Source: Candidatus Latescibacterota bacterium
GTDB lineage: Bacteria; Latescibacterota; UBA2968; UBA8231
Assembly (NCBI GenBank): GCA_020852055.1
Contig: JADZBP010000161.1
Span: forward strand, 9,493-73,492
Direction of reading: 5' to 3'
DNA: 64,000 nt
Part shown: positions 18,879 through 47,858 of the stretch, one piece after another
Numbering within the stretch: position 1 is the stretch's first letter
How the letters are laid out: every line of letters starts with the position of its first letter
Position numbers and translations under genes: made by a program
The notes under the pieces: generated by a model
The model's input: the letters and a program-made list of their open reading frames with translations, nothing else
What the model was told of the DNA's origin: nothing
The model's database searches: none

Positions 18879-18906
18879 TGACGATAACCACCAAAGGTGA
18901 AGCGCC

Positions 18907-19058
18907 GGGGCACAACCCCTTCGCTCATGACGTTCAATCCTTCGGATTGACGGTCTTCGACACTCGCCGGCCATCCCTGGCCGGCTCCGAGGTCTATCCT
19001 CCGGGGCGCAGTCCTGCGCCCCTTGGAGGACCGAAACCCGCTCAGGGGCAGTCGCCCC
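18907..19058 (-). repeat. structured intergenic element, family A, copy A1 (possible cis-regulatory RNA or REP-like element)
   Basis: Shares a conserved core with 41499-41616 in the same orientation. Two hairpins are retained through compensatory substitutions. Ends 28 nt upstream of ATG 18878. Confidence 0.6.
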
Positions 19059-19081
19059 GTCGTCTCTTCTGTTAGAAAACG

Positions 19082-31501: not shown

Positions 31502-33330
31502 TAGATCGCCACGCCCTTGAACTGGCTGGTGTACAACTGATGGTAGAAACCGCGCTGGTCGAGCAGTTGCTGGTGGGTGCCCTGCTCGACGAGCTGGCCG
31601 TTGTGGACCACCACCACCAAGTCGGCGTCGCGGATGGTGCTCAGGCGGTGGGCGATGACAAAGGCGGTGCGCCCCTGCATCAGCCGCAGCAGCGAGGCCT
31701 GGATGCGCAGCTCGGTGCGGGTATCGACGCTGCTGGTGGCCTCGTCGAGGATGAGGATGGCCGGGTCGGCGAGGATGGCGCGGGCAATGGCCAGCAACTG
31801 GCGCTGCCCCTGGCTGAGGTTGCCGGCCCGCTCCGAGAGCAGGGTCTGATAGCCTTCGGGCAATTGATGGATGAAGTGGTCGGCGTCGGCCATACGGGCG
31901 GCCTCGATCACCTCGGCGTCGGTGGCGTCGAGCCGGCCGTAGCGGATATTGTCCATCACCGAGGCGGAGAAGAGGTAGGTGTCTTGCAGCACGAGGCCCA
32001 GGCGGCGGCGCAGCTCGGGTTTGGGGAACTGCCGCAGGTCGGTCCCGTCGATGGTGATCCGGCCGCTCTCGATCTCGTAGAAACGGGTCAACAGGTTGAC
32101 GATGGTGGTTTTGCCAGCCCCGGTGGGCCCCACCAGGGCGATGGTCTGGCCTGGCCTGGCTTCGAGGGTCATGTCCTTGATGATGGGGGTACCGGGCACG
32201 TAGCTGAAGCGCACCTGCTCGAAACAGACCTGCCCCCTGGTTTTGGCCGGCGCGGCAGCCACAGGCGCCTCGTCCACCTCCGAAGGGGTGTCGAGGATCT
32301 CGAAGACCCGCTCCCCTCCGGCCAGGGCCGCCTGTATCGAGTTGTACATGTTGGCGAGCTGGCGCAGCGGGTTGATGAAGTTGCGGCCATAACTGATGAA
32401 GGTGACGATGGTGCCCACCGTGACCAGGCCCTTGAGCGCCAGCCAACCGCCCAGGCCGGCGATGGCGATGACAAAGAGGTTGCCCAGCTGGTTGGTCAGC
32501 GGCATCAGCAACAGGGCGTAGGAGTTGGCGTAGATGGCAGCACGGCAGACTTGTTCGTTGTGCCGGCGGAATTCGGCGGCGGCCCAATCGCCGCGGCGGA
32601 AGGCCTTGACCACCCGCTGGCCGCTGATGGCTTCCTCCACCACCGCGTTGAGTTGGCCCAGGTCTTTCTGCAACTCGCGGAAGCCCTTGCGGGTGTAGCG
32701 GGCGACGAAGTTGGTGAACCAGAACATGATCGGCACCACGATCACCGAGGCCAGGGCCAGCCAGAAGTTGAGCACGAACATCGCCACCAGAATGCCCCCC
32801 AGGGAGAGCACGCTGGCCAGCAGGGCCACCACGTTCTGGGAGATGGCGGTATTGAGGGCCTCGACGTCGTTGGTCAGGCGGCTCATCAGCTCGCCGGCGG
32901 GGTGGTTGTCGTAGAAGCGCAGTTCGAGGGTTTGCAGGTGGCCAAAGAGGTCGGCGCGCACCTTCTTGAGCGCCCGCTGCGAGACGGCGGCCATCAGCCG
33001 GCCCGAGGCGACATCGGCCAGGCTGCCCAGCAGGAAGACGGCCAGCATCCAGCCGGAGATCAGGGCTAGCCCCTCGGTGTCGCGGGTGGCGATGTATTCG
33101 TCGAAGGCCCGGCCCATCAGGTACGGCCCCGCCAGGCCCAGGCCGGTGGAGATAAAGACCAGGCAGACAACGATGGCCAGCAGCACCCGGTGCTGGCCTA
33201 GGTAGGGGATGAGGCGGGCCAGGGTGCGGCGCGGGTCGCGCGCCTTCTCGATCTTGCCCGGCATGCCCGGCGGGCCGCGGCGCACGGCGGGCGGGCTGTC
33301 GCTGGAGGCGCTGCGCTCGTGCTGGGTCAT
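31501..33330 (-). CDS. ABC exporter half-transporter (TMD-NBD), canonical Walker B, degenerate signature
   Basis: Start at MTQHERSAS (ATG 33330). Walker A GPTGAGKTT, signature LSQGQRQ (not LSGGQ), Walker B ILILDEATS. Confidence 0.9.
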   Translation of the reverse strand: MTQHERSASSDSPPAVRRGPPGMPGKIEKARDPRRTLARLIPYLGQHRVLLAIVVCLVFISTGLGLAGPYLMGRAFDEYIATRDTEGLALISGWMLAVFLLGSLADVASGRLMAAVSQRALKKVRADLFGHLQTLELRFYDNHPAGELMSRLTNDVEALNTAISQNVVALLASVLSLGGILVAMFVLNFWLALASVIVVPIMFWFTNFVARYTRKGFRELQKDLGQLNAVVEEAISGQRVVKAFRRGDWAAAEFRRHNEQVCRAAIYANSYALLLMPLTNQLGNLFVIAIAGLGGWLALKGLVTVGTIVTFISYGRNFINPLRQLANMYNSIQAALAGGERVFEILDTPSEVDEAPVAAAPAKTRGQVCFEQVRFSYVPGTPIIKDMTLEARPGQTIALVGPTGAGKTTIVNLLTRFYEIESGRITIDGTDLRQFPKPELRRRLGLVLQDTYLFSASVMDNIRYGRLDATDAEVIEAARMADADHFIHQLPEGYQTLLSERAGNLSQGQRQLLAIARAILADPAILILDEATSSVDTRTELRIQASLLRLMQGRTAFVIAHRLSTIRDADLVVVVHNGQLVEQGTHQQLLDQRGFYHQLYTSQFKGVAI

Positions 33331-33334
33331 CGCC

Positions 33335-35080
33335 TCAGCCTCCGTTGGGGCCGGGGCCCAGTTGGGAGGCGTAGATCTCCTGGTAGATGGGGCTGGATTG
33401 CAGCAGTTCTCGGTGGGTCCCCTCGGCGGCGAGGCGGCCTTTGTCGATGACCACAATCTTGTCGGCCTTGAGCACGGTGCTGATGCGCTGGGCCACCACG
33501 AAGCAGGTGCGGCCTTCCATCCAGGCCTCCAGCGCCTCCTGGATCTTGGTTTCGGTCTCCACGTCCACCGCGCTGGTGCTGTCGTCGAGGATGAGGATGG
33601 CCGGGCGGGTGAGCAGGGCGCGGGCAATGGCCAGGCGCTGCTTCTGCCCGCCCGAGAGGTTGACGCCGCGTTCCTCGACCCGGGTGTCGTACCCCTGGGG
33701 CAATTCGAGCACAAAGTCGTGGGCCTGGGCGGCCCGGGCGGCAGCCACCACCTCCTCGTCGCCGGCGGTGGGCCGGCCGTAGCGGATATTGTCGCGCACC
33801 GTGCCCGAGAAGAGCACCGTCTCCTGCGGCACCACGCCGATGTGGTCCAAGAGCGAATCCTGCTGGATCTGGCGCAGGTCCTGCCCGTCAATGAGGATGC
33901 GGCCGGCAGTGGGGTCGTAGAAGCGCGGGATCAGATTGACCAAGGTGCTCTTGCCTGCCCCGGTGGCGCCCAGGATGGCCACGGTCTGCCCCGGCTCGGC
34001 GACCAGGTCGATGTCCTCCAGCACGATGGTCTCGTTCGAGTCGTGGTAGTGGAAGCCGACCTTTTCGAAGACCACCCGCGGCCGGGCCGAGGCGGGCAGA
34101 GGCGGGGCTCCGGGCGCATCCTGCACCTGGGGCACGGTGTCGAGCACCTCGTTGAGGCGCTCGGCCGAGACGATGCCGGCGGCCCAGACATTGGCCAGCA
34201 TGGTCATGATCATCAGCGGCCCGATGGCGGTTTGGAGATAATTGACGAAGGCCACGATCTGGCCGATGGTCACCTCGCCGTGCATCGCCTGCACCCCGCC
34301 GGCCCAGATGACCACCACGATGCCCACGTTGATACAGGCGCTGAGGGCCGGCCCCATGGTGGAGAGGAACTCCACGACCCGGATATTGCGCTCGGTGAAA
34401 TCCTCGTTGGCTGATTCGAAACGCGCGGCTTCGTGGTCGGCGCGCACGAAGGCTTTGACCACCCGCACCCCGGAGATGTTCTCCTGCAGGATGGTGTTGA
34501 GCCGGTCGAGTTTCTGCTGCATGGTCAGAAAGAGGGGCCGCATCCGGGTGATGAAGTAGACGATGATGCCCGAGGTGAGCAGCAGCAGGGGCACCACCAC
34601 CAGGGCCAGATGGCGGTCGGTGATGAACATCAGCGCGATGCTGCCGACCATCAGCAGGGTGGCGCGGGTGCCGATGCGCAGGGAGACCTGCACCACCCTG
34701 AGCATCGCCCCCGAGTCGCTGGAGAGGCGCACCATCAGCTGGCCGGTCTTGAGCCGGTCGAGATTGCCGTAGGAGAAGGATTGAACCTTGAGGAAGAGGG
34801 CCTCGCGCAGGTCGCGGGCCACCCCCTCGCCCACCTGCACCGAGAAGTTGTTGTTGCCGATGGCGAAGAGGGTGCTGGCCACCGAGATGGCCAGCATCAA
34901 CAGGAAGGTGTGCCAGACCTCCTCCATGTCACCGGCCAGGATGCCCTGGTCGATGATGTGCTGCACCAGGCGGGGGATGGCCAGGTCGAGGACCACGACG
35001 ATGACCAGCAGCACCAGCGAGAGCACACTCTTCTGCCAGTAGGGTTTGACGAAGGGCAGCAGTTTGAGGACGTGTCGCAT
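33335..35080 (-). CDS. ABC exporter half-transporter (TMD-NBD), degenerate catalytic site
   Basis: Start at MRHVLKLLPFVKPYW (ATG 35080). Walker A GATGAGKST, signature LSGGQKQ, Walker B ILILDDSTS (Asp replaces the catalytic Glu). Confidence 0.9.
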   Translation of the reverse strand: MRHVLKLLPFVKPYWQKSVLSLVLLVIVVVLDLAIPRLVQHIIDQGILAGDMEEVWHTFLLMLAISVASTLFAIGNNNFSVQVGEGVARDLREALFLKVQSFSYGNLDRLKTGQLMVRLSSDSGAMLRVVQVSLRIGTRATLLMVGSIALMFITDRHLALVVVPLLLLTSGIIVYFITRMRPLFLTMQQKLDRLNTILQENISGVRVVKAFVRADHEAARFESANEDFTERNIRVVEFLSTMGPALSACINVGIVVVIWAGGVQAMHGEVTIGQIVAFVNYLQTAIGPLMIMTMLANVWAAGIVSAERLNEVLDTVPQVQDAPGAPPLPASARPRVVFEKVGFHYHDSNETIVLEDIDLVAEPGQTVAILGATGAGKSTLVNLIPRFYDPTAGRILIDGQDLRQIQQDSLLDHIGVVPQETVLFSGTVRDNIRYGRPTAGDEEVVAAARAAQAHDFVLELPQGYDTRVEERGVNLSGGQKQRLAIARALLTRPAILILDDSTSAVDVETETKIQEALEAWMEGRTCFVVAQRISTVLKADKIVVIDKGRLAAEGTHRELLQSSPIYQEIYASQLGPGPNGG

Positions 35081-35111
35081 CAGAGGGGGTCCACCGGGTT
35101 TTCGTTGCGAC

Positions 35112-35254
35112 GGGGAGCGACCCGCTCCGGCCTTTCCCAAGGCGCGTCCTGCCCCCTCGCTCGCACAGCTCCGCTACTCCACCACCCCACCACGCGGACT
35201 TCCCTTCCCGACCACTCCCCAGGGAAAGTCCTGCGGGGTCATCTCCCCGCCGCT
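35112..35254. repeat. dispersed C-rich mosaic repeat, family B, copy B1
   Basis: Aligns box-for-box with 42950-43097 and 7220-7435. Ends exactly at ATG 35255. Confidence 0.55.
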
Positions 35255-36133
35255 ATGGGTACGCAATCCATATTTGACGCGCCGGTGGCACCACAGCAAT
35301 TTAAGGAAATGCCAACCTTTGAACATGCTGTCGCCAAAATCGCCTATCATGGCCAGGGCGCCGGGCCGCCGGTGCTCTTCATTCAGGGGGTGGGGGTGCC
35401 CGGTGGTGGCTGGGGCCCGCAACTGGAGGGCCTGGCCGATCGCTTCCACTGCGTTGCCTTCGATCACCGCGGCCTGGGCGGGAGCAGTCCGGTGGAGGGC
35501 CGGCTGCACCTCGCCGACCTGGTGGGGGACACCCTGGCCCTGATGGACGAACTGGGCTGGGACGACGCGCATCTGGTGGGCCACAGCATGGGCGGGGTCA
35601 TCGCCCACCAGTTGGCCCTCGACGCCCGCAGCCGGGTCCGCAGCCTCTCGCTCCTGTGTACCTTTGCCCGCGGCAAGGACGCGGCGCGTCTGAGCCCCTG
35701 GATCGCCTGGGTGGGCCTGCGCACCCGCGTGGGTTCGCGCGCCATGCGCCGGCGGGCTTTCCTCGAAATGATTTTGCCTGCCGCAGTGCGCCGGGGTGCC
35801 AATCTGGAGGCCCTGGCCACCCACTACGGCACCTTCTTCGGGCGCGACCTGGCCGAGCAGCCGCCGGTGGTGATGAAGCAGTTGCAGGCCCTGGCCGCCC
35901 ACGACCAGCGGGCCCGCTTGCCCGAGCTGGGGGGGCTGCCTACCCTGGTGGTCAGCGGCGCCGAGGACCGGCTGGCCCTGCCGGCGTACGGCTGGGCCCT
36001 GGCCGGAGCCATCCGCGGGGCGCGGTACTATCAGTTCGCCGACGCGGCCCACGGCCTGCCCCTCGCCCAACCTGAACAGGTCAACACGTTGCTGGCCGAA
36101 CACCTGGCCGCTGCCGAAGCCGGCCGCTCCTGA
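35255..36133 (+). CDS. alpha/beta hydrolase fold protein
   Basis: PPVLFIQG, nucleophile elbow GHSMGG, C-terminal AAHG. An alternative start at ATG 35309 (MPTFEH) is possible because 35255 abuts the repeat and lacks an RBS. Confidence 0.8.
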   Translation: MGTQSIFDAPVAPQQFKEMPTFEHAVAKIAYHGQGAGPPVLFIQGVGVPGGGWGPQLEGLADRFHCVAFDHRGLGGSSPVEGRLHLADLVGDTLALMDELGWDDAHLVGHSMGGVIAHQLALDARSRVRSLSLLCTFARGKDAARLSPWIAWVGLRTRVGSRAMRRRAFLEMILPAAVRRGANLEALATHYGTFFGRDLAEQPPVVMKQLQALAAHDQRARLPELGGLPTLVVSGAEDRLALPAYGWALAGAIRGARYYQFADAAHGLPLAQPEQVNTLLAEHLAAAEAGRS

Positions 36134-39119: not shown

Positions 39120-40451
39120 CTACTCCTTCAGCGGGTGGGTGATCTTCACCACGATCGGGTTCTTCCACTCCCACATGTTGTAGATGCGGTGGGCACTCAT
39201 CACCGACAGGTGCAGGCCTTTTTCGTCCTGGTGCCAGCGCGGGGTCGGGTCGAGGCTGGGGCGGTACTCGAGGATCTTGCCGGCGTGGCCGAGTACCTGC
39301 ACCTGGGTCTGCTCGCTGGCCCGCACGCTTTTCAGGGTGAAGTTGAGGCGGCGGCCGTAGGTGCGGTTGGGGTCCTTGGTGCCGGCGGCGTCCTCGGCCG
39401 CGGCCCAGTCGATATTGGTGACCATGGCGTATACCGCGTCTTCGTTTTTGGCGCAGGTGAACCACACGTCGCCCTCATGGGTCACATGCCGGGGACGCAC
39501 CTGGTAGATGGCTTCGCGATTGACGAAGAGCCACAGGCCCATCTCGTTGATACGGCCGCTTTGTTCAGGAGCCAGCTCGCCGTCGGGGCGCGGGCCGACG
39601 TTCAACAACAGATTGCCGCCCTTGGCGCGGGTTTCGATCAACATCTGGATCAGGGTCTGCCCGGACTTGTAGTTCTCGTTGGTGGGTTTGAATTGCCACT
39701 GGGTGCCCATGGTGAAACAGCTCTCCCAGGGGCCGGCCAGGGGCGCGTCGGGCAGGGTCTGTTCCGGGGTGGCGATGGCCCCGCGGGTGACAACGATCTC
39801 GGGCTGCAGCTGCCAGGCCAGTTCTTTGAGACCCTCGGGCTGGCCGTCGAGGAAGAGCATGTCGATGGGCCCGTACCCGGTCAGCAGCTCGCGCAACTGG
39901 GCCAGGTTGGTCTGCATGAGCCGGGGGTTGTTGAGTGGATCGGCCTCGGGGGTGCCGCGGTTGATGGGGATGCCCTGCTGCCAGAGCACGTGGAAATCGT
40001 CGGGGGAAAAGTAGATGCCGATACCGATGCCCTGCTTGCGGAAGGCGTCGAAGAGCAGGCGGGTCAGGTCGTGCGGGTAGGGCGTATGCATGATGCCGAA
40101 GTCGGTGGTCCGGGTCTCGAACATACAGAACCCGCTGTGGTGTTTGGTGGTGAACACCACGTACTGGACCCCGGCCAGCCGCGCCTGGCGGGCCCACTCG
40201 TCGGGGTCGTACTTGTGGGGATAAAAGGTGCGCGGCAGTTCGGTGAAAAAGCGCTCGGCGTAATCGGGCGAGGCACCCACCAGGGAATGGCTGATCACCA
40301 TGCCCAGTTGGGAGTCGAGGCTCCAGTGGATGAAGAGGCCCAGGCCCAGATCCTGGAACCATTCGAGGCGTTCGGGTTTGTTGCCCGAGGTCTGGCTGGC
40401 CCGGGTGGCTTCCAGATCCTGCTCGCCGCCGTCCTGCGGGGTCTTAGTCAT
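39120..40451 (-). CDS. alpha-L-fucosidase (GH29)
   Basis: 443 aa. FGLFIHWS, KHHSGFCMF, YFSPDD and LLLNVGP are typical GH29 blocks. Confidence 0.85.
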   Translation of the reverse strand: MTKTPQDGGEQDLEATRASQTSGNKPERLEWFQDLGLGLFIHWSLDSQLGMVISHSLVGASPDYAERFFTELPRTFYPHKYDPDEWARQARLAGVQYVVFTTKHHSGFCMFETRTTDFGIMHTPYPHDLTRLLFDAFRKQGIGIGIYFSPDDFHVLWQQGIPINRGTPEADPLNNPRLMQTNLAQLRELLTGYGPIDMLFLDGQPEGLKELAWQLQPEIVVTRGAIATPEQTLPDAPLAGPWESCFTMGTQWQFKPTNENYKSGQTLIQMLIETRAKGGNLLLNVGPRPDGELAPEQSGRINEMGLWLFVNREAIYQVRPRHVTHEGDVWFTCAKNEDAVYAMVTNIDWAAAEDAAGTKDPNRTYGRRLNFTLKSVRASEQTQVQVLGHAGKILEYRPSLDPTPRWHQDEKGLHLSVMSAHRIYNMWEWKNPIVVKITHPLKE

Positions 40452-40485
40452 AACCGTACTCCTTGAGGGTGTCTTCGTCGAAGCC
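40448..40485. repeat. left copy of a 38-bp direct repeat bracketing the mazEF cassette
   Basis: TCATAACCGTACTCCTTGAGGGTGTCTTCGTCGAAGCC matches 41109-41146 at 36 of 38 positions. On the minus strand it encodes a relic ...GFDEDTLKEYGYD* and contains the fucosidase ATG. Confidence 0.8.
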
Positions 40486-40520: not shown

Positions 40521-40853
40521 TCAACCAAGCTCCAACCACAGTTTCAGTGAGATATCGACCTGTCCGGCATCAGCAGGAGCTAGCCGGCCGACAGACTTGA
40601 TGACCAGCGAGGAGTGTACCGTGTAGAGCCCGCGTTTTACGGCGGTGGGGACATTGAGCCCCGCCCCTCGCCAGTCCGCGAGCACGAATTCACCGGTCAG
40701 TAGCGAGTCCGTGCGGCTGGTAAGGGGGAGGATGAAGAGGTCCTGCGATTCGAGGGAAGCACTGACGATGGTGGCAGGGCGGACTTTGGTGCTGGAGAGA
40801 TCTGAAAAAGGATAACGTACCAGGACCAGGTCATTCTTTGAGTAGCTGGGCAT
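40521..40853 (-). CDS. mazF: PemK/MazF family toxin
   Basis: 110 aa. VLVRYPFSDLSSTKVRPATIV N-terminal signature of the MazF/PemK fold. Confidence 0.8.
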   Translation of the reverse strand: MPSYSKNDLVLVRYPFSDLSSTKVRPATIVSASLESQDLFILPLTSRTDSLLTGEFVLADWRGAGLNVPTAVKRGLYTVHSSLVIKSVGRLAPADAGQVDISLKLWLELG

Positions 40854-41034
40854 AAATCTCGTCTTCCGGGTTATCCCAGACCGTGGCCAATGAGGCCTGG
40901 CTGGCTTGGGTCCAGAAAGAGGAATCCTCGTCAGTGGTCAGGGTGACCAATACCTTGCTCCCTTCCGGGAGGTCCAGGTGCTCCAGCAGCTCGATCTTCC
41001 CTTCGTGAACCACGGCCCAAACGGTGTTAAACAT
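40831..41034 (-). CDS. DUF104/AF2212-like antitoxin
   Basis: 67 aa. VVHEGKIELLEHLDLPEGSKVLVTL is the typical DUF104 beta-hairpin. Overlaps mazF by 23 nt. Confidence 0.65.
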   Translation of the reverse strand: MFNTVWAVVHEGKIELLEHLDLPEGSKVLVTLTTDEDSSFWTQASQASLATVWDNPEDEIYAQLLKE

Positions 41035-41104
41035 CGATCACGCTCCTGCGCTAGGTGCCTCAAATATACCTCATCGGAAGGACATCTCAAAAGCACCGTG
41101 GGGG

Positions 41105-41473
41105 TCACTCATAGCCGTACTCCTTGAGGGTGTCTTCGTTGAAGCCCATGAAGTGGGCGATTTCGTGGACCAGGGTGATTTCGATCTCCTCCACCAACTC
41201 TTCCAGGTCGGGGAAGTCTTCCTCCAGGGGGCATTGGTAGAGGGTAATCATCGCCGGCATTTCGCCGCTGTCGTCGAGCCGGCGTTCGGGCAGGGGGGTG
41301 CCGCTGAAGAGTCCGTAGAGCAACTCGTCGGGATCGCCGGTGATCTCCTCGACGACCTCGGGGTCGGGCCAGTCCTCGATGACGATGGCCACGTTCTGCA
41401 TGGCCTGCTGGAAGGGCTGGGGGATCTTCGCCAGGGCGCGCTGGACCAGCTTTTCGAAACGGTGGCGATTCAT
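41105..41473 (-). CDS. zinc metallopeptidase-like protein (DUF1025/zincin family)
   Basis: Start at MNRHRFEKLV (ATG 41473). HEIAH (HExxH) motif. Acidic protein of about 122 aa. The track's 274-aa ORF runs on through repeat A2. Confidence 0.7.
   Translation of the reverse strand: MNRHRFEKLVQRALAKIPQPFQQAMQNVAIVIEDWPDPEVVEEITGDPDELLYGLFSGTPLPERRLDDSGEMPAMITLYQCPLEEDFPDLEELVEEIEITLVHEIAHFMGFNEDTLKEYGYE
41109..41146. repeat. right copy of the 38-bp direct repeat (functional 3' end of the metallopeptidase gene)
   Basis: TCATAGCCGTACTCCTTGAGGGTGTCTTCGTTGAAGCC. On the minus strand it encodes ...GFNEDTLKEYGYE*. Confidence 0.8.
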
Positions 41474-41498
41474 CGGTGGTTCCTCAACAGTGGGCATC

Positions 41499-41616
41499 GA
41501 GGAATAGCCCCTTCGCTCATTCTCGCGCCCCATCCCTGGGGCGCTCCGAGGTCTGTCCTCCAGGGCGCAGTCCTGCGCCCTTTGGAGGACCGAAATCCGC
41601 TCCGGGGCTACTCCTC
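41499..41616 (-). repeat. structured intergenic element, family A, copy A2
   Basis: 13-bp closing helix GAGGAGUAGCCCC/GGGGCUAUUCCUC on the minus-strand RNA, enclosing the two conserved hairpins. Ends 25 nt upstream of ATG 41473. Confidence 0.6.
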
Positions 41617-41676
41617 GCCGCTTGGCTCGGGCTCTAGCCGGCAGGCCGAGTAATGAAACAGTGTCATATCCAATGG

Positions 41677-44600
41677 TCAAAACAACGAAAGCTGCTCGGC
41701 CTCGGCGCGGCGGGGCGGTTCGATGGTTTCTTTTACCAGCAGCGCGGCGGGCAACTCGCGCACGAAGGAGGAGAGGGCGGATTCGAGTCGCTGCCCGTAC
41801 TGTTGCCGGCTGCGGGCGGCCACCAACACCAACTCCTCGCGCGCCCTGGTGAGGCCCACGTAGCAGAGCCGGCGCTCTTCTTCCAGGGTTGCTCCGTTCA
41901 GTGGCAGCAATCCCTCTTCCATCCCGCACAGAAAAACCACCTCGAATTCGAGCCCTCTGGCCGCGTGCAGGGTGAGGAGGCGCACCGCCTCCACGTTGGT
42001 GCTGCGGCGCTCGTAGTCGGCACCAACGCCCAGGGCTACCGTGGCTAGCAATTCTTCCAGTGAGTTCGCCTGCTCGGCCAGTTGGGTTAGGCGCGATAGG
42101 TCCTCATCCTGCCCGTACTCCTGCTGATAGCGGCGCACCAGAGCGGCCGGGGTTTCCTGTTCGGCGAGGCGGCGGTACTCTGCGGCGGCGGCGCACAGGG
42201 TCCGGGCTTCGGGCAGGGTCTCGGCCGCCACCGGGCGGGTCAGTTTCCGGGCCAGCTCGTTTATGGCTTGAGGGCCGGGGTTGAAGGCAGGCAGTTCGAG
42301 GGCCTGGAGCAGGCGCAGGGGTTCCTCGGGTTGGAGCACAAAGCGCAGAAAGGCCAGGGCCTGGCGCACGGGCGGGGCAGCGAGGAAACTCTTCTCCCCC
42401 AGCAGGTGGTAGGGCAGGCCGGCGTGCAGGAAACACTCCTCCAGCATCTGGGCCTGGGCGTGGGTGCGGAAGAGCACGCCGAAGTCGGCGAGGCTGTGCG
42501 CCTTTTTGCTGCGCCCGCTCTGGCGGTCGGACTGCACCATGTCGGCCCCGCCCACCATCCGGCTGATCTCCTGGACCACGGCGATACCCTCGGCCTTTTC
42601 GCCCGGCACCGAGAGCAGACGCAGTTGCGCTCCGCCCTGGCGGGCCGGCCGCAGATGCAGGGGCTGGCGGCCGGGGTTGTGGGTGATGAGGGCAGCGGCG
42701 GCCTGCACGATGGGGGCGGCACAGCGGTAGTTGACTTCGAGATGCACGAGGTGGGCGGCGGGATAATCGGCGAGCAACCGGGCAAAACAGGAGGCATCGG
42801 CGCCGCGGAAACCGTAGATGGCCTGGTCCGGGTCGCCGATGACAAAGAGGCCCTCGCCGCTGCCGGCCAGGGAACGGACGATCTGGTACTGGACCAGGTT
42901 GAGGTCCTGGAACTCGTCGACCAGCACCTGGGTGAAGCCGAGTGACGGTCGCGCCAGGGGATGGCCCACTTCGGTTTTTCTCCAGGCGCGCCCTTCTCCC
43001 TCGCTCGCTATCGCTCCGCTACCCGGCCCCCAACCACGCGGGCTTCCCAGCCCCGCCACTCCCCGAGAAAAACCTTCGGGGCCATTCCCCTGCCGCTCGA
43101 GCAAACCCTCGGGGTCACCTCCCCGCCCCTCGATCATATCCTCAGAGTCATCTCCCGGCCGCTCGTTACGACCGGAGAAATCTTCGTCGCTGGTTTCCAG
43201 CAGATCGAGAAAATCCAGCAGGATCTGGTCGTAGTCCCAGACCTCGTAGCGAGCGAGTTGCTCCTGGTACGCGGCGTAGACTTGTCCCAGTTTTTCATCT
43301 GCCAGTTCTTCTGGTTTCTGGCCATGGGCCTTGGCCTGCATGATGCCCTCGTGTGCGGAGGCCAGGGACAAGCTGACCCCGCTCTCGGCCAGGGCGCGGG
43401 AGAGCAACTGGCGGCTCTCCCATTCGTCGAGCACGGGTTTGAGCGGCAGGCCCAGGTCGGCCATCAGTTGCAGGGCCACCTGATGGAAGGTGCCCACGTG
43501 TAACTCGGCCAGGGCGGCGCCATCGCCGAGCAGGGTTTCGAGGCGCTGGCGCAGTTCAGCGGCGGCCCGTCGGGTGAAGGTGAGGGCCAGGATCTGGCCG
43601 GGCGCAACGCCGCGCTGGCCGATGAGATGGGCGATGCGCTGGGTGAGGGTGCGGGTCTTGCCCGAGCCGGGGCCGGCCACGACCACCACCGGCCTGCCTT
43701 CCATCTCCACGGCCTGCTGTTGGGCCGGATCGAGGTCAGGGGCCACAACCGCAGCGGGCTCCGGGGTATTGGGCGAGGGAGCCTGCGCCGCCACGGTCGG
43801 TGCCTGGGGCGCGGGCGTCGAGGCCGGCAGGGCAAAGAGCAGCTTCTGCCCTTTGAGTTGTTGGCGCTCCTCGTCGGTGAAGAGCTGGATGACCCCGTAC
43901 TCGCCGTCGTACCCGGCGGCGATCTGCACCTGGCCGGTGCGCATGCGCCGCACCCCCTCGGCCACCAGATGCTCACCGGTGGCGGCAATCGCTTCGGGGG
44001 TGGCGTGGCGCAGGATGTACAACTCGGGACCCAGGCTGGCCAGCAGGTGTTGGTACACCGCCTGCACCCTCTTGCTGGCGGGGCCGCTGCCCAGGGCCGA
44101 GCCGATCACCTCGGGCAGGGGGATGAGGTACTCGCAGGGGCGTTTGGGCCCCTCGCCCTCGGGCCGGTCGGCCAGGAGTTCGACCCGGTGCAACACCCCC
44201 ACGGTCAGTTGCTGGCCACAGACCGGGCAGCGGCCCCCGGCGGCCAGGGTCTGCGCGGGTCTCCAGCGCACCTGGCAGTTGCGGTGGCCGTCGCAGTGGT
44301 ACTTGCCCTCCTCGGGGTAGAACTCCAGGGTGCCGGTGAACTGCGCCGGGTCGCGGCTCCTGAGGGCCGCCAACATGGCCGAATAAGAGAGGTCGGTGTC
44401 AAAGCAGGTGCCCTCGCGGGCCAGCTTCTGGGGGGAATGGGCATCGGAATTGGAGACCAGGGCAAAGCGGTCCAGCTCGGCGATGCGGCTGTTCATCGGC
44501 GGGTCGGAGGAGAGGCCGGTCTCCACCGCCGGGATATGGGGCAGGAGGTCCTCGTAACACTCCTCCAGGCTGTCGAAACCCGAGGCCGAACCCAGGGCGG

Positions 44601-45111
44601 CGAAGTGCGGGGTCCAGATATGGGCCGGGATGAAGAGCACCTCGGGGCAGACCTCCAGGCAGATCTCCAACAGATCCCGACTGTCCAGCCCCAGGATGGG
44701 CCGTCCGTCCGACTTGAGATTGCCGATGGCCCCCAGCCGCCGGTTGAGGGCCTCCACCTCGGCAAAGCCAGGCATGACGACCACGTTGTGCACCTTGCGG
44801 GTGCGGCCGTTTTTCTTATAGATGGAGCTGATCTCCACGCTGAGGACGAAACGCACCTCGGCCAGGCACGAGGGCGGCAACTGGGCTTCGACGGGGATGC
44901 GCCAGGTGTCCTTGAGGCGGTAGAGGCCCTCTTCGGCCGGCTCCAGTTGCTCCTGCAACTCGGCCAGCCAGGCCGGGTGGGTGAAGTCGCCGGTGCCCAC
45001 CACGGTGATGCCCTTGAGGGCCGACCAGCGGTGCAGGTTCTCGGGGTTCAGGTCGCGACTGGTGGCCCGGGCGTAGCGGGAGTGGAGATGGATGTCGGCG
45101 ACGAAGCGCAT
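41677..45111 (-). CDS. fusion protein: EndoQ-like PHP-domain nuclease (N-terminal) plus UvrD/PcrA-type SF1 helicase (C-terminal)
   Basis: N-terminal part has DIHLHSRYARATS, NSDAHS and a zinc ribbon CDGHRNC...CPVCG, as in the endonuclease Q/TIGR00375 family. C-terminal part has AGPGSGKT, LTFTRRAA, VDEFQD, GDPDQAIYGFRGA, and LTLHAARGLEFEVVFL. Confidence 0.8.
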   Translation of the reverse strand: MRFVADIHLHSRYARATSRDLNPENLHRWSALKGITVVGTGDFTHPAWLAELQEQLEPAEEGLYRLKDTWRIPVEAQLPPSCLAEVRFVLSVEISSIYKKNGRTRKVHNVVVMPGFAEVEALNRRLGAIGNLKSDGRPILGLDSRDLLEICLEVCPEVLFIPAHIWTPHFAALGSASGFDSLEECYEDLLPHIPAVETGLSSDPPMNSRIAELDRFALVSNSDAHSPQKLAREGTCFDTDLSYSAMLAALRSRDPAQFTGTLEFYPEEGKYHCDGHRNCQVRWRPAQTLAAGGRCPVCGQQLTVGVLHRVELLADRPEGEGPKRPCEYLIPLPEVIGSALGSGPASKRVQAVYQHLLASLGPELYILRHATPEAIAATGEHLVAEGVRRMRTGQVQIAAGYDGEYGVIQLFTDEERQQLKGQKLLFALPASTPAPQAPTVAAQAPSPNTPEPAAVVAPDLDPAQQQAVEMEGRPVVVVAGPGSGKTRTLTQRIAHLIGQRGVAPGQILALTFTRRAAAELRQRLETLLGDGAALAELHVGTFHQVALQLMADLGLPLKPVLDEWESRQLLSRALAESGVSLSLASAHEGIMQAKAHGQKPEELADEKLGQVYAAYQEQLARYEVWDYDQILLDFLDLLETSDEDFSGRNERPGDDSEDMIEGRGGDPEGLLERQGNGPEGFSRGVAGLGSPRGWGPGSGAIASEGEGRAWRKTEVGHPLARPSLGFTQVLVDEFQDLNLVQYQIVRSLAGSGEGLFVIGDPDQAIYGFRGADASCFARLLADYPAAHLVHLEVNYRCAAPIVQAAAALITHNPGRQPLHLRPARQGGAQLRLLSVPGEKAEGIAVVQEISRMVGGADMVQSDRQSGRSKKAHSLADFGVLFRTHAQAQMLEECFLHAGLPYHLLGEKSFLAAPPVRQALAFLRFVLQPEEPLRLLQALELPAFNPGPQAINELARKLTRPVAAETLPEARTLCAAAAEYRRLAEQETPAALVRRYQQEYGQDEDLSRLTQLAEQANSLEELLATVALGVGADYERRSTNVEAVRLLTLHAARGLEFEVVFLCGMEEGLLPLNGATLEEERRLCYVGLTRAREELVLVAARSRQQYGQRLESALSSFVRELPAALLVKETIEPPRRAEAEQLSLF
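42950..43196. repeat. family B repeat copy B2 plus three tandem 33-34-nt units, read in frame inside the helicase gene
   Basis: 42957-43097 aligns with B1 and B3. Units at 43064-43097, 43098-43130 and 43131-43163 share CGA.(C)AAA.CCTCGGGG.CA.CTCCCC.GCCGCT. Translated on the minus strand they give 11-aa repeats (ERPGDDSEDMI / EGRGGDPEGLL / ERQGNGPEGFS). Confidence 0.7.
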
Positions 45112-45176: not shown

Positions 45177-47858
45177 ATGTCAAAAGTCTGGATGACCAGC
45201 GGGTTCGAGGGCTTCAGCCAGGGAACCCCGGGCAACGCCGGCCACAATCTCTATGTCTCCCGGCAGGGCATCCTGCAGCGCATCCACCAGTACGACCTGG
45301 ATGGCGACGGGTACCTGGATCTGGTCTTCTGCAACAGCCAGGACCACTGGGAGAAGGCGCCGGCCTATGTGTACCGCCACCTGGCCGGCGCGGTGGAGCG
45401 CCTCGAACTGCCCGCCGACGGGGCGCAGACCGGGGTGGTGGCCGATCTGGACGGGGACGGGTACCCGGATCTGGTGCTGGGCATGGAGCATGACGGCATC
45501 CGCGCCGACCTCAATACCCGCATCTACTACGGCTCCCCCGAGGGATTCGGCGAAAAGCGCCAGCAGCGCCTGCCCGTGCCCCGGTGCAGCGGGGTGGCGG
45601 CCGGTGACTTCGACGGGGATGGGAGGGTGGATCTGGCCTTTCTCAGCCAGGGCTGGCTGCGGCTCTTTGCTCAGAGCCGCCTGGGCTTTGAGCCCAAGCA
45701 GTACCGCGACCTCGAAATCTGCGGGGAACAACTGGCTGCTGCGGATCTCGATGGGGACGGTTGTGCCGAGTTGGTAGTGCGCGAGAAGGGCGGCGAGGTG
45801 AAGGTGTACTGGGGCGGCCCCGGCGGCCTGGACCCCAATCGCTGCACCCTGGTGCCAGTGGCGGTGGACCCTCCTGCAGCCCAGGAAGTGGGACGCGCTC
45901 CCGAGTACGTGCCTCCGGCCGGGGCCCTGGTGCAGGTGCTCTATCTGCTCGGGGTGCCGCATCTCTTCGTCGCCCGTGTCCGGCAGGTGTTGCTGGTGCC
46001 AGTGCAGCAAGGGCGGCACTGGGGACAACCCCTGGTGCTGGAATGCCCCGACGCCTTGAGCGCGGCGGCTGCCGATCTGGACGGGGATGGGTACGAGGAG
46101 GTGGTGTTGGCCTGCCGGCAGGCGGGGCCCGAACAACACTCGTGGATCTACTGGGGCGGGCCGCAGGGCTTCGATGAAGAGCGCCGCCAGGCCCTGCCCA
46201 GCAAGGGGGCCTGCGACGTGGCCATCGGGGATGTGGACGGGGATGGACAATTGGAGATTGCCCGGTGCCAGGGCGCCGGCGAGGAATCCTTCAGCACCGA
46301 ATCCCTGGTATACCGGGCCACGGGTGAATGCCTGGCCCGGCTGCCCAGTGAGGATGCGCGTCGGATCTTCGTTGTCCCTGTCGGTCCGGAAACGCCGGCC
46401 CAGGTGGTGCTGGTCAACCACTACAGCCGCGATGCCCTGGGTAATATCCCGGTTTCGGTCTTTCCTGGCGGCGCCGAGGGTTTTGATCCGGAGCGCCCGC
46501 GGCAGTTGCCTGGCTGGGGTGCGGTGGAGGCCCTGTGCTGCGACGTGGACGACGACGGGCGGGTGGAATTGGTGCTGGCCAATGCCTCGGAGAACGCCAT
46601 CCGCCGCGATCCGGGGTCCTATATCTGGAAGCCGCGCCATCGGGGCCCGTACCCGCAGCCCGACTGGGTGTTGCCCACCACCCGGGCGCACGGGGTCTGT
46701 TGTGCCGACCTGAACCGCGACGGGTACCTCGATCTGGTCTTCTGCGGGTTCAACAATCCCGAGTTGCTGATCTTCTACGGGCGGGAGGGGGGTTTCGATC
46801 TGGAGCACCCGGTGCGCCTCCGCCTCGAATACGAGGGGGTGGTTTACCCGGAGCCGCGCTGGATCTACCTGGCCGACCTCAACCAGGATGGCTGGCTGGA
46901 CCTGGTGGTCCCCCAGATCGCCGCCGAGCGCAGCTTCGTCCTGTGGGGCGGCCCCAAGGGGTTCAGCATGGCGCGCTGCCAGGCCCTCTCGGTCTTCCAC
47001 GCCGCCTGCGCCCGCGCCGCCGACCTCGACGGGGACGGCTGGCCCGAACTGATCCTGGGTGGCCACATCCCTTCGGATCAGGGGCCGCACGATTCTTTCA
47101 TCTATATCTACTGGAATGGCCCGCAGGGTTTGAGCGAGAGCCGGCGCACCCTGTTGCCCGCGGCCGGGGTGAATGCCCTGAGTGTGGCCGACTTCGACGG
47201 GGACGGCCACCTCGATCTCTTTGCCTGCTCCTACCACGACGGCCGCCAGCGCGACATCCCCTCGTATCTCTACTGGAACCGGCCGGGGCGGGGGTTCTCG
47301 GAGAACGACTTCACCCGCCTGCACACCCATTCGGCTTCCGGGTGTGTGGCCTGGGATTTCGACGGGGATGGCCGGGTGGACCTGGCGGTGGCCAATCACA
47401 AGGTGGAGGGGGACCACCGCGGCTACTCGGAGGTGTGGTGGAACAGCGCCGAAGGGTTCTCCGAAGACCGCACCACCCGGTTGCCGACTTCGGGTCCGCA
47501 CGGCATGTGTGCGGTGGAGCCGGGCAACCTGCTCGACCGCGGCCCCGAGGAGTATTATGTTTCCGCGCCTTTCAAGCTGTCGCCCGGCCATCACCTGAGC
47601 GAGGTATCGTGGGACGCTCAGGTGCCGCCCCAGAGCTGGGTGGGCCTGCAACTGCGCTGCGCCGCCACCCGCGCCGGCCTGGACCAGGCGCCCTGGCAGG
47701 GACCCGATGGGCAGGGGAGTTGGTGGAGGAACTACCAGCAGGTCCGCGGCATGAAGGGTAAGTGGGTGCAGTACCGCCTGGCCCTGGGGGCGCGCCAGTG
47801 CGGGGCCAGCCCCCGGGTGCGCGAGGTGGCCATCTTCTACGACGAGATCGGAGTCTGA
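45177..47858 (+). CDS. FG-GAP/VCBS repeat protein (integrin-alpha-like beta-propellers)
   Basis: 893 aa with at least 10 D-x-D/N-G-D-G calcium-loop repeats (DLDGDGYLDLVF, DLDGDGYPDLVL, DFDGDGRVDLAF ...). No obvious signal peptide. Confidence 0.8.
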   Translation: MSKVWMTSGFEGFSQGTPGNAGHNLYVSRQGILQRIHQYDLDGDGYLDLVFCNSQDHWEKAPAYVYRHLAGAVERLELPADGAQTGVVADLDGDGYPDLVLGMEHDGIRADLNTRIYYGSPEGFGEKRQQRLPVPRCSGVAAGDFDGDGRVDLAFLSQGWLRLFAQSRLGFEPKQYRDLEICGEQLAAADLDGDGCAELVVREKGGEVKVYWGGPGGLDPNRCTLVPVAVDPPAAQEVGRAPEYVPPAGALVQVLYLLGVPHLFVARVRQVLLVPVQQGRHWGQPLVLECPDALSAAAADLDGDGYEEVVLACRQAGPEQHSWIYWGGPQGFDEERRQALPSKGACDVAIGDVDGDGQLEIARCQGAGEESFSTESLVYRATGECLARLPSEDARRIFVVPVGPETPAQVVLVNHYSRDALGNIPVSVFPGGAEGFDPERPRQLPGWGAVEALCCDVDDDGRVELVLANASENAIRRDPGSYIWKPRHRGPYPQPDWVLPTTRAHGVCCADLNRDGYLDLVFCGFNNPELLIFYGREGGFDLEHPVRLRLEYEGVVYPEPRWIYLADLNQDGWLDLVVPQIAAERSFVLWGGPKGFSMARCQALSVFHAACARAADLDGDGWPELILGGHIPSDQGPHDSFIYIYWNGPQGLSESRRTLLPAAGVNALSVADFDGDGHLDLFACSYHDGRQRDIPSYLYWNRPGRGFSENDFTRLHTHSASGCVAWDFDGDGRVDLAVANHKVEGDHRGYSEVWWNSAEGFSEDRTTRLPTSGPHGMCAVEPGNLLDRGPEEYYVSAPFKLSPGHHLSEVSWDAQVPPQSWVGLQLRCAATRAGLDQAPWQGPDGQGSWWRNYQQVRGMKGKWVQYRLALGARQCGASPRVREVAIFYDEIGV

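Follow-up and report, generated by a model that had tools for sequence, protein, structure and literature searches.

What is the structured segment that separates a helicase gene from a metallopeptidase gene on a contig of Candidatus Latescibacterota? The window analysed here (the whole stretch of DNA, 64,000 nucleotides) carries this segment, named copy A2, in the spacer upstream of a Zincin_1 gene. An earlier note, made from the sequence alone, had left three readings side by side: a cis-regulatory leader, a processing or stability element, and a structured REP. The evidence favours the last of these and leaves the leader unsupported. A2 belongs to a many-copy repeat family that was previously uncatalogued and is probably a copy of a mobile structured repeat of the REPIN/MITE kind, interspersed and non-autonomous.

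A branched fold in the helicase-to-Zincin_1 spacer

Copy A2 is read on the minus strand from 41616 to 41499; it starts with GAGGAGUAGCCCC and ends with GGGGCUAUUCCUC. Its parts and the flanking genes are as follows.

41677..45111, minus strand: UvrD-type helicase gene (1144 aa), upstream of A2, with its stop 55 nt before the element
41604..41621, minus strand: 5' arm of the closing helix P1 (GAGGAGUAGCCCC at 41616-41604, outer GCGGC at 41621-41617), from RNAfold and covariation
41594..41603, minus strand: junction J1/2, GGAGCGGAUU, near-invariant as (N)GAGCGGAUU, from invariant columns in two alignments
41550..41593, minus strand: P2 with a GGA-bearing loop, UC.GUCCUCCA..GGGCGCA-GGAC-UGCGCCC UGGAGGAC.GA, of which helices 4-8 covary
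41521..41549, minus strand: P3 module, UC-GGA-GCGCCCCA-GGGA-UGGGGCGC-GA-GA, from RNAfold and covariation
41512..41520, minus strand: junction J3/1, AUGAGCGAA, near-invariant
41494..41511, minus strand: 3' arm of P1 (GGGGCUAUUCCUC at 41511-41499, then outer GAUGC), from RNAfold and covariation
41105..41473, minus strand: Zincin_1 metallopeptidase gene (122 aa; PF06262, E 1.4e-26), downstream of A2

The closing helix that had been drawn over 13 positions, with one G-U around two hairpins, is reproduced by RNAfold: all 13 positions pair, G6-U included, and the helix runs about 4 pairs further than first noted, to 41621/41494. Within it, the long hairpin combines GUCCUCC/GGAGGAC with GGGCGCA/UGCGCCC. 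The second hairpin, GCGCCCCA-GGGA-UGGGGCGC, is the 8-bp stem of P3; an A-U pair closes its GGGA tetraloop, and a tandem G.A may form at the foot of the stem. The GC of J1/2 pairs with the GC of J3/1, and its GG with a CC located 3' of P2 (helices 2 and 3).

The minus strand of A2 has a minimum free energy (MFE) of -76.6 kcal/mol (z = -7.6), a stability reached by none of 200 dinucleotide shuffles. The plus strand, in which the A-C forms a 1x1 loop, is nearly as stable at -70.2 kcal/mol (z -6.7). The 3' end of A2 lies 25 nt before ATG 41473, with the ribosome-binding site (RBS) GAGGAA at 41485-41480 just outside the element, as originally described, and the gene is a Zincin_1 metallopeptidase by its PF06262 match. 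The exact protein sequence of the Zincin_1 product is not on record, and the C-terminal part of the helicase is 87% identical to that of a Latescibacterota MAG.

A large family across several phylum labels

Two scans that required the window's own P2 recovered only 4 true copies among about 48 chance matches. The element looked rare in them because the pattern demanded this P2, which a 24-base pattern centred on P3 corrected: it matches 45 loci of GTDB species genomes and 75 contigs from metagenomes, and these yield 101 distinct copies. A covariance model built from 7 copies gives 106 matches at E<1e-6, with GC contents from 0.43 to 0.74, and no match in 807 kb of unrelated control loci. Copies of this A family come from MAGs labelled Latescibacterota, Handelsmanbacteria, Gemmatimonadetes, Nitrospirota and Planctomycetota, as well as from lake, groundwater and marine metagenomes; none was found in viral contigs or plasmids. 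Rfam 15 gave no match over the whole window at the gathering threshold and only chance-level matches at E<=10 on A2 and on a locus with seven copies (L162). A full-text literature search found no account of this element.

Elements are about 110-190 nt long. P1 has some 17-29 bp (median about 23 pairs), and its sequence differs between subfamilies, even in one genome, yet stays paired. The junction strands (N)GAGCGGAUU, CCUCGGAG and CGAGAAUGAGCGAA are near-invariant. The core as a whole is conserved in genomes of 43% to 74% GC, with an NGGA loop (GNRA-type GGGA in most copies), a possible tandem G.A and an optional hairpin. The latter, P4, sits just upstream of J3/1 in about a dozen copies besides A1, the second member of the family in the window.

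~18903-19062, minus strand: copy A1, same family as A2, with a P4 insert (covariance model score 140.5 bits)

A1 is flanked on one side by a Creatininase-family gene (stop 19082) and on the other by a 2-hydroxyacid dehydrogenase gene (ATG 18878), and its extra hairpin of about 34 nt is placed 5' of AUGAGCG. Its MFE is -93.6 kcal/mol (z -6.3). The closing pairing of A1 had been called equivalent to that of A2 but weaker; with about 16 pairs (CGACGGGGCGACUGCCCC / GGGGUUGUGCCCCGGCG) it is longer than noted.

Covariation identifies the folded strand

In the three-way junction, 94.8% of cells pair across the family. Shuffles give 65.9%, none of the 500 being as high as the real alignment, and pairing falls to 38-49% with slid partners. 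Both sides have changed in 43 of the 48 pairs. All 17 modelled pairs of P1 covary; in the P3 stem (helix 10), 6 of 8 pairs have changed on both sides, and A1 and A2 differ there by 3 compensatory pairs. P2 covaries freely and is shortened or absent in several copies. This level of family covariation establishes the three-way-junction fold as real.

G-U outnumbers A-C by 121 to 66 overall and by 78 to 21 in P1, where collapsing cells of the same local context leaves 77:21 (binomial p = 1e-8). Because of this excess in P1, the element-sense strand is the folded strand, that is, the minus strand for A2, as had been proposed; the counts show that the fold is under selection on this strand. The stronger wording, that the closing helix works only as minus-strand RNA, goes too far for A2 alone, considering the stability of its plus strand; the choice of strand becomes solid only across the family.

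Genomic context and the leader reading

Could A2 be a gene-specific leader of the Zincin_1 gene, whether a riboswitch, a thermosensor or a switch sequestering the Shine-Dalgarno (SD) sequence? Its sense orientation and short distance to the ATG speak for such a role. The order of helicase stop, element and Zincin_1 ATG is common to the window and loci L049 and L191, and in about half of the copies a start codon on the same strand follows at a distance of 13-66 nt. At L050, where the helicase is 51% identical, synteny is different and there is no element.

The family as a whole speaks against it, however. Downstream genes are mutually unrelated: 34 distinct proteins were counted, with functions as diverse as sulfatases, ABC transporters, a kinase, oxidoreductases and others, and more than 100 copies adjoin unrelated genes. 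Sense and antisense copies among co-directional genes stand at 22:13 under one gene-calling heuristic and 11:14 under another, both being crude ORF/GC3 heuristics, so that orientation is near random. Convergent and divergent settings are common, and many copies are antisense or face the stop of a convergent gene. Within 8 kb, the Nitrospirota-labelled locus L162 accommodates seven copies, distributed over both strands and occupying most of its intergenic spacers. The description of the structured RNA as gene-sense applies to A1 and A2 and is no property of the family. Comparison of orthologous genes cuts both ways: close relatives retain the element, yet many unrelated sites are occupied as well.

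The pairing GUCCUCC/GGAGGAC, which the earlier note had described as an anti-SD-like and SD-like pair, is part of P2 and is not conserved. It is replaced by CCUCUGG/CCAGAGG in the L049 ortholog, where the whole P2 stem differs, and P2 is free to vary or deleted elsewhere. The real RBS of the Zincin_1 gene lies outside the element and shows no stable sequestration, as it is paired in part of the MFE structure only and unpaired in the centroid fold. A2 is unlikely to act as a switch on this ribosome-binding site. Altogether, the distribution of the family largely refutes the leader, which we hold to be very improbable, and shows that the element is indifferent to the identity of its flanking genes and largely to their direction.

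Signs of mobility and recombination, and a sister family

Comparison of syntenic loci shows that the element behaves as mobile or recombining DNA. In the pair L151 and L187, a filled site faces an empty one, the difference being a 211-nt insert with a direct repeat CTGC (4 nt); it is the only such pair found, and the unit has an unpaired 5' extension of about 21 nt. The CTGC repeat could be due to chance or to deletion microhomology. At another syntenic site of the same two loci, one has an A element and the other a B element in its place. Between L002 and L013, the whole unit is inverted within flanks that are 94-95% identical. The orthologous copy in L049 carries a P2 like that of other copies of its own genome (L136, L156) and unlike that of the window or L191, a pattern that shows concerted evolution, with homogenisation among copies within a genome. 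Finally, four L162 copies and L135, from the same MAG, have identical P1 and P2 stems and therefore indicate a recent burst.

Counting against the mobile reading, no link of the family to a transposase, RAYT or reverse transcriptase emerged, and A2 is stably inherited at one site in three genomes. No obvious target-site duplication is seen in the L162 subfamily, in spite of its recent amplification, and none of about 110 copies is split by an ORF-sized insert that could represent a parent element. Since the P1 arms are unconserved between subfamilies, it is unlikely that a classical transposase recognising terminal inverted repeats is involved.

The sister family, B, is represented twice in the window.

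35104..35257, minus strand: copy B1, with arms GCGGCGGGGAGAUGACCCC / GGGUCGCUCCCCGUCGC
42950..43120, minus strand: copy B2, in frame within the helicase gene (about aa 664-720)

B2 has P1 arms of the same kind as the A family, and the Pfam domains of the helicase are split or stretched across it. An in-frame B copy of this kind is present in the helicase gene of two genomes.

In summary, one strand of the A element folds into a three-way junction made of the closing helix P1, a variable P2 with its GGA-bearing loop, an 8-bp P3 hairpin capped by A-NGGA-U, and an optional P4, with near-invariant junctions. The unit probably spreads or is exchanged in the way of a REPIN, MITE or ERIC-type element, in which case the propagation machinery, or a host factor, would read the conserved single-stranded fold, either in a transcript or in a single-stranded DNA intermediate.

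Transcription and termination

The core from several copies is present in metatranscriptome contigs of three out of four runs, and one RNA contig leads from the middle of an element into the downstream ORF at mRNA-like depth; this RNA evidence concerns a marine copy and unstranded contigs only. Sequencing runs matching the window itself were DNA metagenomes only, sharing at most 17% of words, with no RNA run among them. A/T-rich TANNNT boxes are somewhat more frequent directly upstream of P1, where 53 were counted, than in a downstream control region with 30; the bin closest to P1 has 12 and its control none. Only a minority of copies have such boxes, and searches at A1 and A2 gave no sigma-70-type site. 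From these sequence counts, a promoter belonging to the element is a weak lead. A2 is probably co-transcribed within the spacer between the helicase and Zincin_1 genes, and its stem would most likely serve there as a processing or stability block, for instance by being cut by RNase III or by blocking exonucleases.

A stem of such stability might also be an intrinsic or bidirectional terminator, or else a chance GC-rich palindrome. Many copies abut stop codons (median 22-36 nt, several within 0-12 nt) and some lie between convergent genes. Neither A1 nor A2 has a U-tract or terminator-like site, though; marine copies continue with CCGUCCAC instead of U-runs, and an asymmetric, branched, conserved core is superfluous for termination. 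We give very little credit to this pair of readings, of which the chance palindrome is excluded by the shuffles and covariation.

Comparison with known repeats

REP/REPIN sequences share with the A family a short, non-coding, extragenic and high-copy nature, two inverted arms that form a long hairpin, compensatory changes in the arms, coexisting subfamilies in a genome and persistence at orthologous sites (PMC3116915). The inverted doublet, high copy number and extragenic location by which such sequences are recognised are all found in the A family. REPINs are simple hairpins of two short REPs, of lineage-specific sequence and associated with RAYT (Bertels & Rainey 2011, PMC3116915). Here, in contrast, a branched core of about 95 nt lies between the arms, and its junction sequence hardly varies from one genome to another, however different these are. 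A conserved GTAG-type 5' motif is also missing: by reading, GTAG occurs in A2 and L049 but is unconserved.

Among MITEs that are transcribed into mRNAs, Correia/NEMIS elements of Neisseria and enterobacterial ERIC/IRU elements resemble the family in length (about 100-150 nt) and in their intergenic location in either orientation, and their long terminal inverted repeats are comparable to the P1 arms. They are co-transcribed, as our family probably is, and the hairpin may be an RNase III or stability determinant. Variable orientation at one locus is a further common point, and presence/absence polymorphism, here from the single filled/empty pair with its short direct repeat, a possible one. Unlike in MITEs, the terminal repeats of our family are hypervariable between subfamilies, with no fixed sequence for a transposase to bind and no known parent IS, and it is the interior that is conserved and shows RNA-style covariation.

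Rickettsia palindromic elements (RPEs), palindromes some 100-150 nt in length, can occupy protein-coding genes without breaking the frame. Family B, the only one seen in a coding region, is like them in its in-frame location inside the UvrD-type helicase, but taxa and sequences differ from those of RPEs. To our knowledge, the way in which RPEs are mobilised has itself not been described.

Integron attC sites were rejected: by reading, the base of P1 is GCGGCG/CGNCGC or GAGG/CCGUC, against RYYYAAC/GTTRRRY in attC core sites, and copies are dispersed among large housekeeping-type genes, where attC sites form tandem arrays behind cassette ORFs. Hammerhead and twister-type ribozymes, domain 5 of group II introns and Y RNA were likewise set aside, as the junctions misfit by eye and the Rfam models are silent. 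The same holds for 5S rRNA, in spite of its similar size, three-way topology and GCGAGA..GAA-like 3' strand.

Possible functions of the conserved core

The constancy of the core and its RNA-like features exceed those of known REP and MITE families, which speaks for a role of the RNA as such and against a reading by mobility only. It is conceivable, though rather unlikely, that the core is a new functional RNA class, be it a self-processing ribozyme or a platform that binds a global regulator of the CsrA type with high affinity, seeded across several uncultured phyla by a mobile carrier. Such a core would have been captured by a mobile palindromic carrier, or be one itself, and so have brought one post-transcriptional module into hundreds of intergenic spacers, as a bacterial "SINE with a job".

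One version, in which mobility is secondary, is a protein-binding RNA module, trans-acting or embedded in mRNA, that recruits or titrates a CsrA-like global regulator. GGA stands in the hairpin loop of P3 and usually in that of P2, some 35-40 nt apart, as in the dual-site targets of CsrA/RsmA and the sponge units of CsrB/Rsm. CsrA sites have GGA in a hairpin loop and allow two sites 10-63 nt apart, a range that includes the spacing found in the element (PMC7652899). In all copies the P3 loop reads C-CA-NGGA-UG-G, with an invariant GGA; N is G in most copies and U, C or A in Nitrospirota-labelled ones. The loop agrees with CARGGAUG, the central part of the SELEX consensus RUACARGGAUGU. However, the element has C in place of the first A of ACA, and its stem has 8 bp where SELEX ligands favour at most 4 bp. 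P2 loops are mostly CAGGAYNG. The sole Rfam near-matches belong to the CsrB/Rsm clan (RsmW with 12.8 bits for A2; CsrB with 15.1 bits, E 0.71, for an L162 copy), but such scores of 13-15 bits compare with gathering thresholds of 52-71.

CsrB/RsmZ-type RNAs and the TwoAYGGAY motif (RF01731; clan CL00106) similarly present A(N)GGA(U) hairpin loops. They differ from the present family, which has only 2-3 GGA sites, set in a conserved three-way junction with a long closing helix, is interspersed and mobile-like where they are single sRNA genes, and stays below the Rfam thresholds. Conservation of the core far above the needs of mobility alone and the presence of the element in RNA assemblies fit a CsrA-like partner. 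The invariant junction and long P1, on the other hand, would be left unexplained, and antisense copies would be silent unless they had their own promoter, for which evidence is weak. In addition, tblastn over about 1.9 Mb of fetched loci detected no csrA at element-bearing loci, the single match being an element-free Gemmatimonadales locus. We treat the resemblance of the loops to CsrA-binding GGA hairpins as a lead and not a result, and judge this version unlikely.

The hammerhead and twister families of ribozymes are multi-copy and associated with mobile behaviour. By analogy, the element could be a new self-processing or enzyme-processed RNA, a ribozyme or RNase site that punctuates operons: its junction would be the active or recognition core, with P1 bringing the flanks together. 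Near-invariant junction nucleotides among freely covarying stems, an architecture of variable stem lengths with an optional hairpin as in small ribozymes or riboswitches, and a P1 duplex of 17-29 bp that would suit RNase III are all consistent with this. However, no similarity to an Rfam ribozyme appears at E<=10, one RNA contig crosses the 3' half into a gene, and orientation is random relative to transcription. We find such a processed RNA quite improbable, and retain the mobile structured repeat as the best explanation.

REP, ERIC, Correia and RPE repeats are as a rule simple hairpins, each confined to its lineage, and how they are mobilised and what they do is still debated. The present family is set apart from them by covariation of riboswitch or ribozyme quality, by a branched core that is almost unchanged from 43% to 74% GC, and by the conjunction of DNA-level signs of mobility with a cassette-like exchange with its sister family. 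If a mobilising enzyme reads the core, the family would offer a tractable model of structure-guided single-strand transposition in phyla without cultured members. If the core is instead a protein-binding or catalytic RNA, it would constitute a new class of RNA, already represented by more than 100 examples.

There is also a practical side to the shared core. L002 and L013, whose flanks are 95% identical, bear different phylum names, so at least one of the two MAG phylum labels is wrong. Copies with mismatched 5' and 3' halves are seen in metagenome assemblies; the shared core therefore seems to cause chimeric joins, and contigs that carry it are binned under conflicting phylum labels.

Copies A1 and A2 in the window

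Family A is a structured interspersed intergenic repeat. The fold lies on the minus strand for both window copies, A1 and A2, which occur here together with copies of a sister family, B:

41616-41499, minus strand: A2, GAGGAGUAGCCCC-GGAGCGGAUU-(P2)-CCUCGGA-(P3)-GAGAAUGAGCGAA-GGGGCUAUUCCUC
41677-45111, minus strand: ORF of a UvrD-type helicase on one flank of A2, stop at 41677
ATG at 41473: Zincin_1 metallopeptidase on the other flank of A2, RBS GAGGAA at 41485-41480
~18903-19062, minus strand: A1, between a Creatininase-family gene and a 2-hydroxyacid dehydrogenase gene
35104-35257 and 42950-43120, minus strand: family B copies
Loci from other assemblies: family B copies at L002 2668-2817 and 4379-4517; L013 742-896, 2470-2619 and 4181-4333; L151 3873-4070

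RNAfold reproduces on the A2 minus strand what the earlier note had drawn, a 13-bp closing helix (P1) with one G-U around two hairpins, the long P2 with GUCCUCC/GGAGGAC and a second one, P3. The minimum free energy is -76.6 kcal/mol (z = -7.6), and 0 of 200 shuffles fold equally well. The plus strand comes near this value (-70.2 kcal/mol, z -6.7), its A-C forming a small internal loop; the relevant strand is therefore undecidable from this single copy. A1, credited earlier with an equivalent but weaker closing pairing, does have that pairing, but the helix is longer than described (~16 pairs); it carries one additional hairpin. In the second hairpin three consecutive pairs are altered on both sides, GCGCCCC/GGGGCGC in A1 versus GCCGGCC/GGCCGGC in A2. 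At neither copy do predictions show a sigma-70-type promoter or an intrinsic terminator.

Family size and spread

Family A appears uncatalogued. Rfam 15 gave no match at gathering thresholds and chance-level matches only at E<=10, and a full-text literature search for the element, together with CsrA/REPIN background, found no description of it. Our first scans of GTDB species genomes demanded the window's own P2 sequence and returned four true copies amid chance matches. The closest relative of the window in a helicase-based scan is a Latescibacterota groundwater MAG (L049; 87% amino-acid identity), where the element occupies the same site, from helicase stop to Zincin_1 start, with the same junctions and a wholly different P2 stem. 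A later pattern, built around P3 and the conserved sequence on either side of it, yielded 101 distinct copies from 45 loci in GTDB species genomes and 75 metagenome contigs. As labelled by the depositors, the loci found in genomes belong to several Latescibacterota MAGs, one "Handelsmanbacteria" MAG, "Gemmatimonadetes" marine MAGs, three "Nitrospirota" MAGs and one "Planctomycetota" MAG; one Tara Oceans MAG is a further host. L002 (SICG01000017, "Latescibacterota") and L013 (CAMAVQ010000074, "Gemmatimonas phototrophica" MAG) share orthologous genes in flanking DNA 94-95% identical, so at least one of these two labels is wrong.

A covariance model built from seven copies gave 106 matches at E<1e-6, over a GC range of 0.43 to 0.74, those in the window being A1 and A2 only. 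It found none in 807 kb of unrelated control loci, and the viral contigs and plasmids searched held no copies. In three loci (L189, L238 and L209) the 5' and 3' halves are mismatched, each resembling a different copy; these may be chimeric assemblies formed through the shared repeat core.

Anatomy, covariation and strand

Read in element sense, the consensus runs from the P1 5' arm through (N)GAGCGG-AUU, P2, CC-UC-GGA and P3 to GA-GA, an optional hairpin P4, AUGA-GCG-AA and the P1 3' arm. Heuristic delimitation puts the median P1 at 23 pairs and the median element length at 143 nt (range 88-200). P2 spans 2 to 64 nt across the family, with a loop that is mostly CAGGAYNG, and the P4 insert ~31-74 nt. 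P3 is an 8-bp stem with consensus loop GGGA and an A-U closing pair; the loop reads C-CA-NGGA-UG-G in all copies, its GGA invariant and its N free. The P1, P2 and P3 stems vary freely in raw sequences, and the junction strands hardly at all.

Among 86 distinct copies, in an alignment fitted to the covariance model and hence biased toward the structure, standard pairs fill 94.8% of cells, and 43 of 48 pairs show changes on both sides. Column shuffles give 65.9% (observed value reached in 0 of 500) and sliding the 3' partner 38-49%. Judged by this effect size and by the stem variation in the raw sequences, there is little doubt about the predicted three-way-junction pairing.

The earlier inference that the gene-sense (minus) strand is the structured one, which A2 alone could not settle, is borne out in element sense across the family by an excess of G-U over A-C (121:66 overall, 78:21 in P1, and in P1 still 77:21 once shared local contexts are collapsed, p = 1e-8), which identifies the element-sense strand as the folded one. 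The excess fits RNA and single-stranded DNA alike and does not distinguish them, G-T being the mildest mismatch in DNA too.

Marine copies (e.g. L139, L163, L166, L142) have conserved boxes outside the variable part of P1, ..CC(G)GAGG or ..CCGAAGG on the 5' side and ..CCGUCCAC or CCGUAA on the 3' side, whose sequences would imply a conserved bulged or non-canonical helix base. Often an A/T-rich TANNNT-like box stands 5-20 nt upstream, and this region may be a promoter or protein-binding end.

Dynamics at the DNA level

One MAG indicates a recent burst: four copies at locus L162 and one at L135, each at a site of its own, agree fully in their P1 and P2 stems; the remaining L162 copies carry other stems. 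A filled and an empty site are seen in two syntenic loci whose flanks are 84-94% identical: L151 has an element-bearing insert of 211 nt with the direct repeat CTGC at its bounds, and L187 is uninterrupted there. Taken in element sense, this insert carries ~21 unpaired nt as a 5' extension, and its 3' boundary coincides with that of the P1 3' arm. At a second syntenic site L187 has an A element and L151 a family B member. Between the 94-95%-identical flanks of L002 and L013, the entire element stands in opposite orientation in the two, together with its outer arms, and L013 has a B copy next to it. Three copies of the groundwater MAG, the A2 ortholog among them, have one P2 type in common, which is homogenisation among copies; A2 and its other ortholog, L191, share a different type. 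P2-less variants also exist, by internal deletion, and no copy with an ORF-sized insert was found.

Family B (~150-170 nt) has closing arms of A's type in this lineage, GCGGCGGGGAG.UGA.CCCC / GGG.CGCUCCCCG.CGC, around a different interior, and folded as a single copy it stands out less (z -2.5). One B copy, free of stop codons, is set in frame into the UvrD-type helicase gene, both in the window and in the groundwater MAG (L049 3850-3990), directly before motif II (VLVDEFQD), adding ~55-70 residues; in the window it stretches a Pfam AAA_19 match of 134 profile positions over 306 residues. The more distant homologue L050 seems to lack it. Such placement in a coding gene resembles the Rickettsia palindromic elements. 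Burst, filled and empty site, swap, inversion, homogenisation, shared arms with coding insertion, and deletions together characterise an interspersed repeat that moves or recombines.

Gene context

The earlier note had entertained a cis-regulatory leader and pointed to a stem that pairs an SD-like with an anti-SD-like sequence. P2 takes several interchangeable sequences, of which that stem is one, and another stands in its place in the groundwater ortholog; the Zincin_1 RBS lies outside the A2 fold, as had been noted, and is predicted to have no stable pairing. Genes directly downstream of sense-oriented copies encode 34 distinct proteins of unrelated function. Between co-directional genes the sense:antisense ratio is 11:14 or 22:13, depending on which of two crude gene-calling heuristics is used; at many copies the neighbour is a convergent gene with its stop codon toward the element, and the nearest start codon is similarly spaced on either side. 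In AT-rich L162, whose ORFs are unambiguous, seven copies (four plus, three minus) occupy most intergenic spacers of an 8-kb stretch. Unrelated downstream genes, both orientations and an RBS outside the fold rule against a gene-specific leader of Zincin_1. Among the readings offered earlier, a structured REP comes nearest to the evidence.

Possible roles of the element and its core

REP, ERIC and Correia elements are described as uncoupling the stabilities of adjoining cistrons. A2 occupies an intercistronic spacer, with 8 nt separating it from the RBS that follows, and includes a duplex of 17 bp or more. A structure of -77 kcal/mol would be expected to act here as an exonuclease barrier or a double-strand-specific RNase site, which by analogy would uncouple the stability of the helicase and Zincin_1 cistrons. 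Such a mechanical role is the safest inference at this locus.

A lead from sequence comparison is that the GGA loops may be CsrA-type binding sites. The CsrA SELEX consensus is RUACARGGAUGU, with GGA in a hairpin loop, and dual-site dimer binding permits sites 10-63 nt apart (PMC7652899). The P3 loop CA-NGGA-UG corresponds to the core of this consensus, P2 offers a second AGGA within that distance, and the only Rfam near-matches, far below threshold, are in the CsrB/Rsm clan. CsrA binding would account neither for the invariant junction nor for the long P1. The modelled architecture, branched, GNRA-capped and with putative tandem G.A pairs, looks like that of a functional RNA; a catalytic or protein-platform core is therefore conceivable, and that the core represents a new functional RNA class is a minority reading with a real chance of being right.

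RNA evidence comes from the marine copy L149, in unstranded metatranscriptome assemblies in which DNA carry-over is possible. Its core is present in contigs of three of four runs, joined to several different flanks, and one contig extends from mid-element into the downstream ABC-transporter ORF. Depths resemble those of neighbouring mRNA, and these contigs give no sign of an abundant discrete small RNA, which fits passive co-transcription.

Other repeats in the window

The 3' end of the Zincin_1 gene (..EDTLKEYGY*) is present twice, as a 47-nt direct repeat of 87% identity (40439-40485 and 41100-41146). The ~660-nt insert between the two copies codes for a MazF/PemK-like protein, with a small ORF upstream of it (ORFs 40521-40853 and 40831-41034, minus strand); from its sequence the insert looks like a toxin-antitoxin cassette placed at the junction of two overlapping genes. 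At 45290-47390, D-x-D-G-D-G-type motifs (FG-GAP/VCBS-like) are encoded by at least eight imperfect direct repeats, which form part of the coding sequence of a large ORF and have no relation to family A. A 274-nt direct repeat of 72% identity (31732-32005 versus 33572-33845, spacing 1840 nt; also 61654-61730) would fit paralogous ABC-type ATPase genes better than a repeat element.
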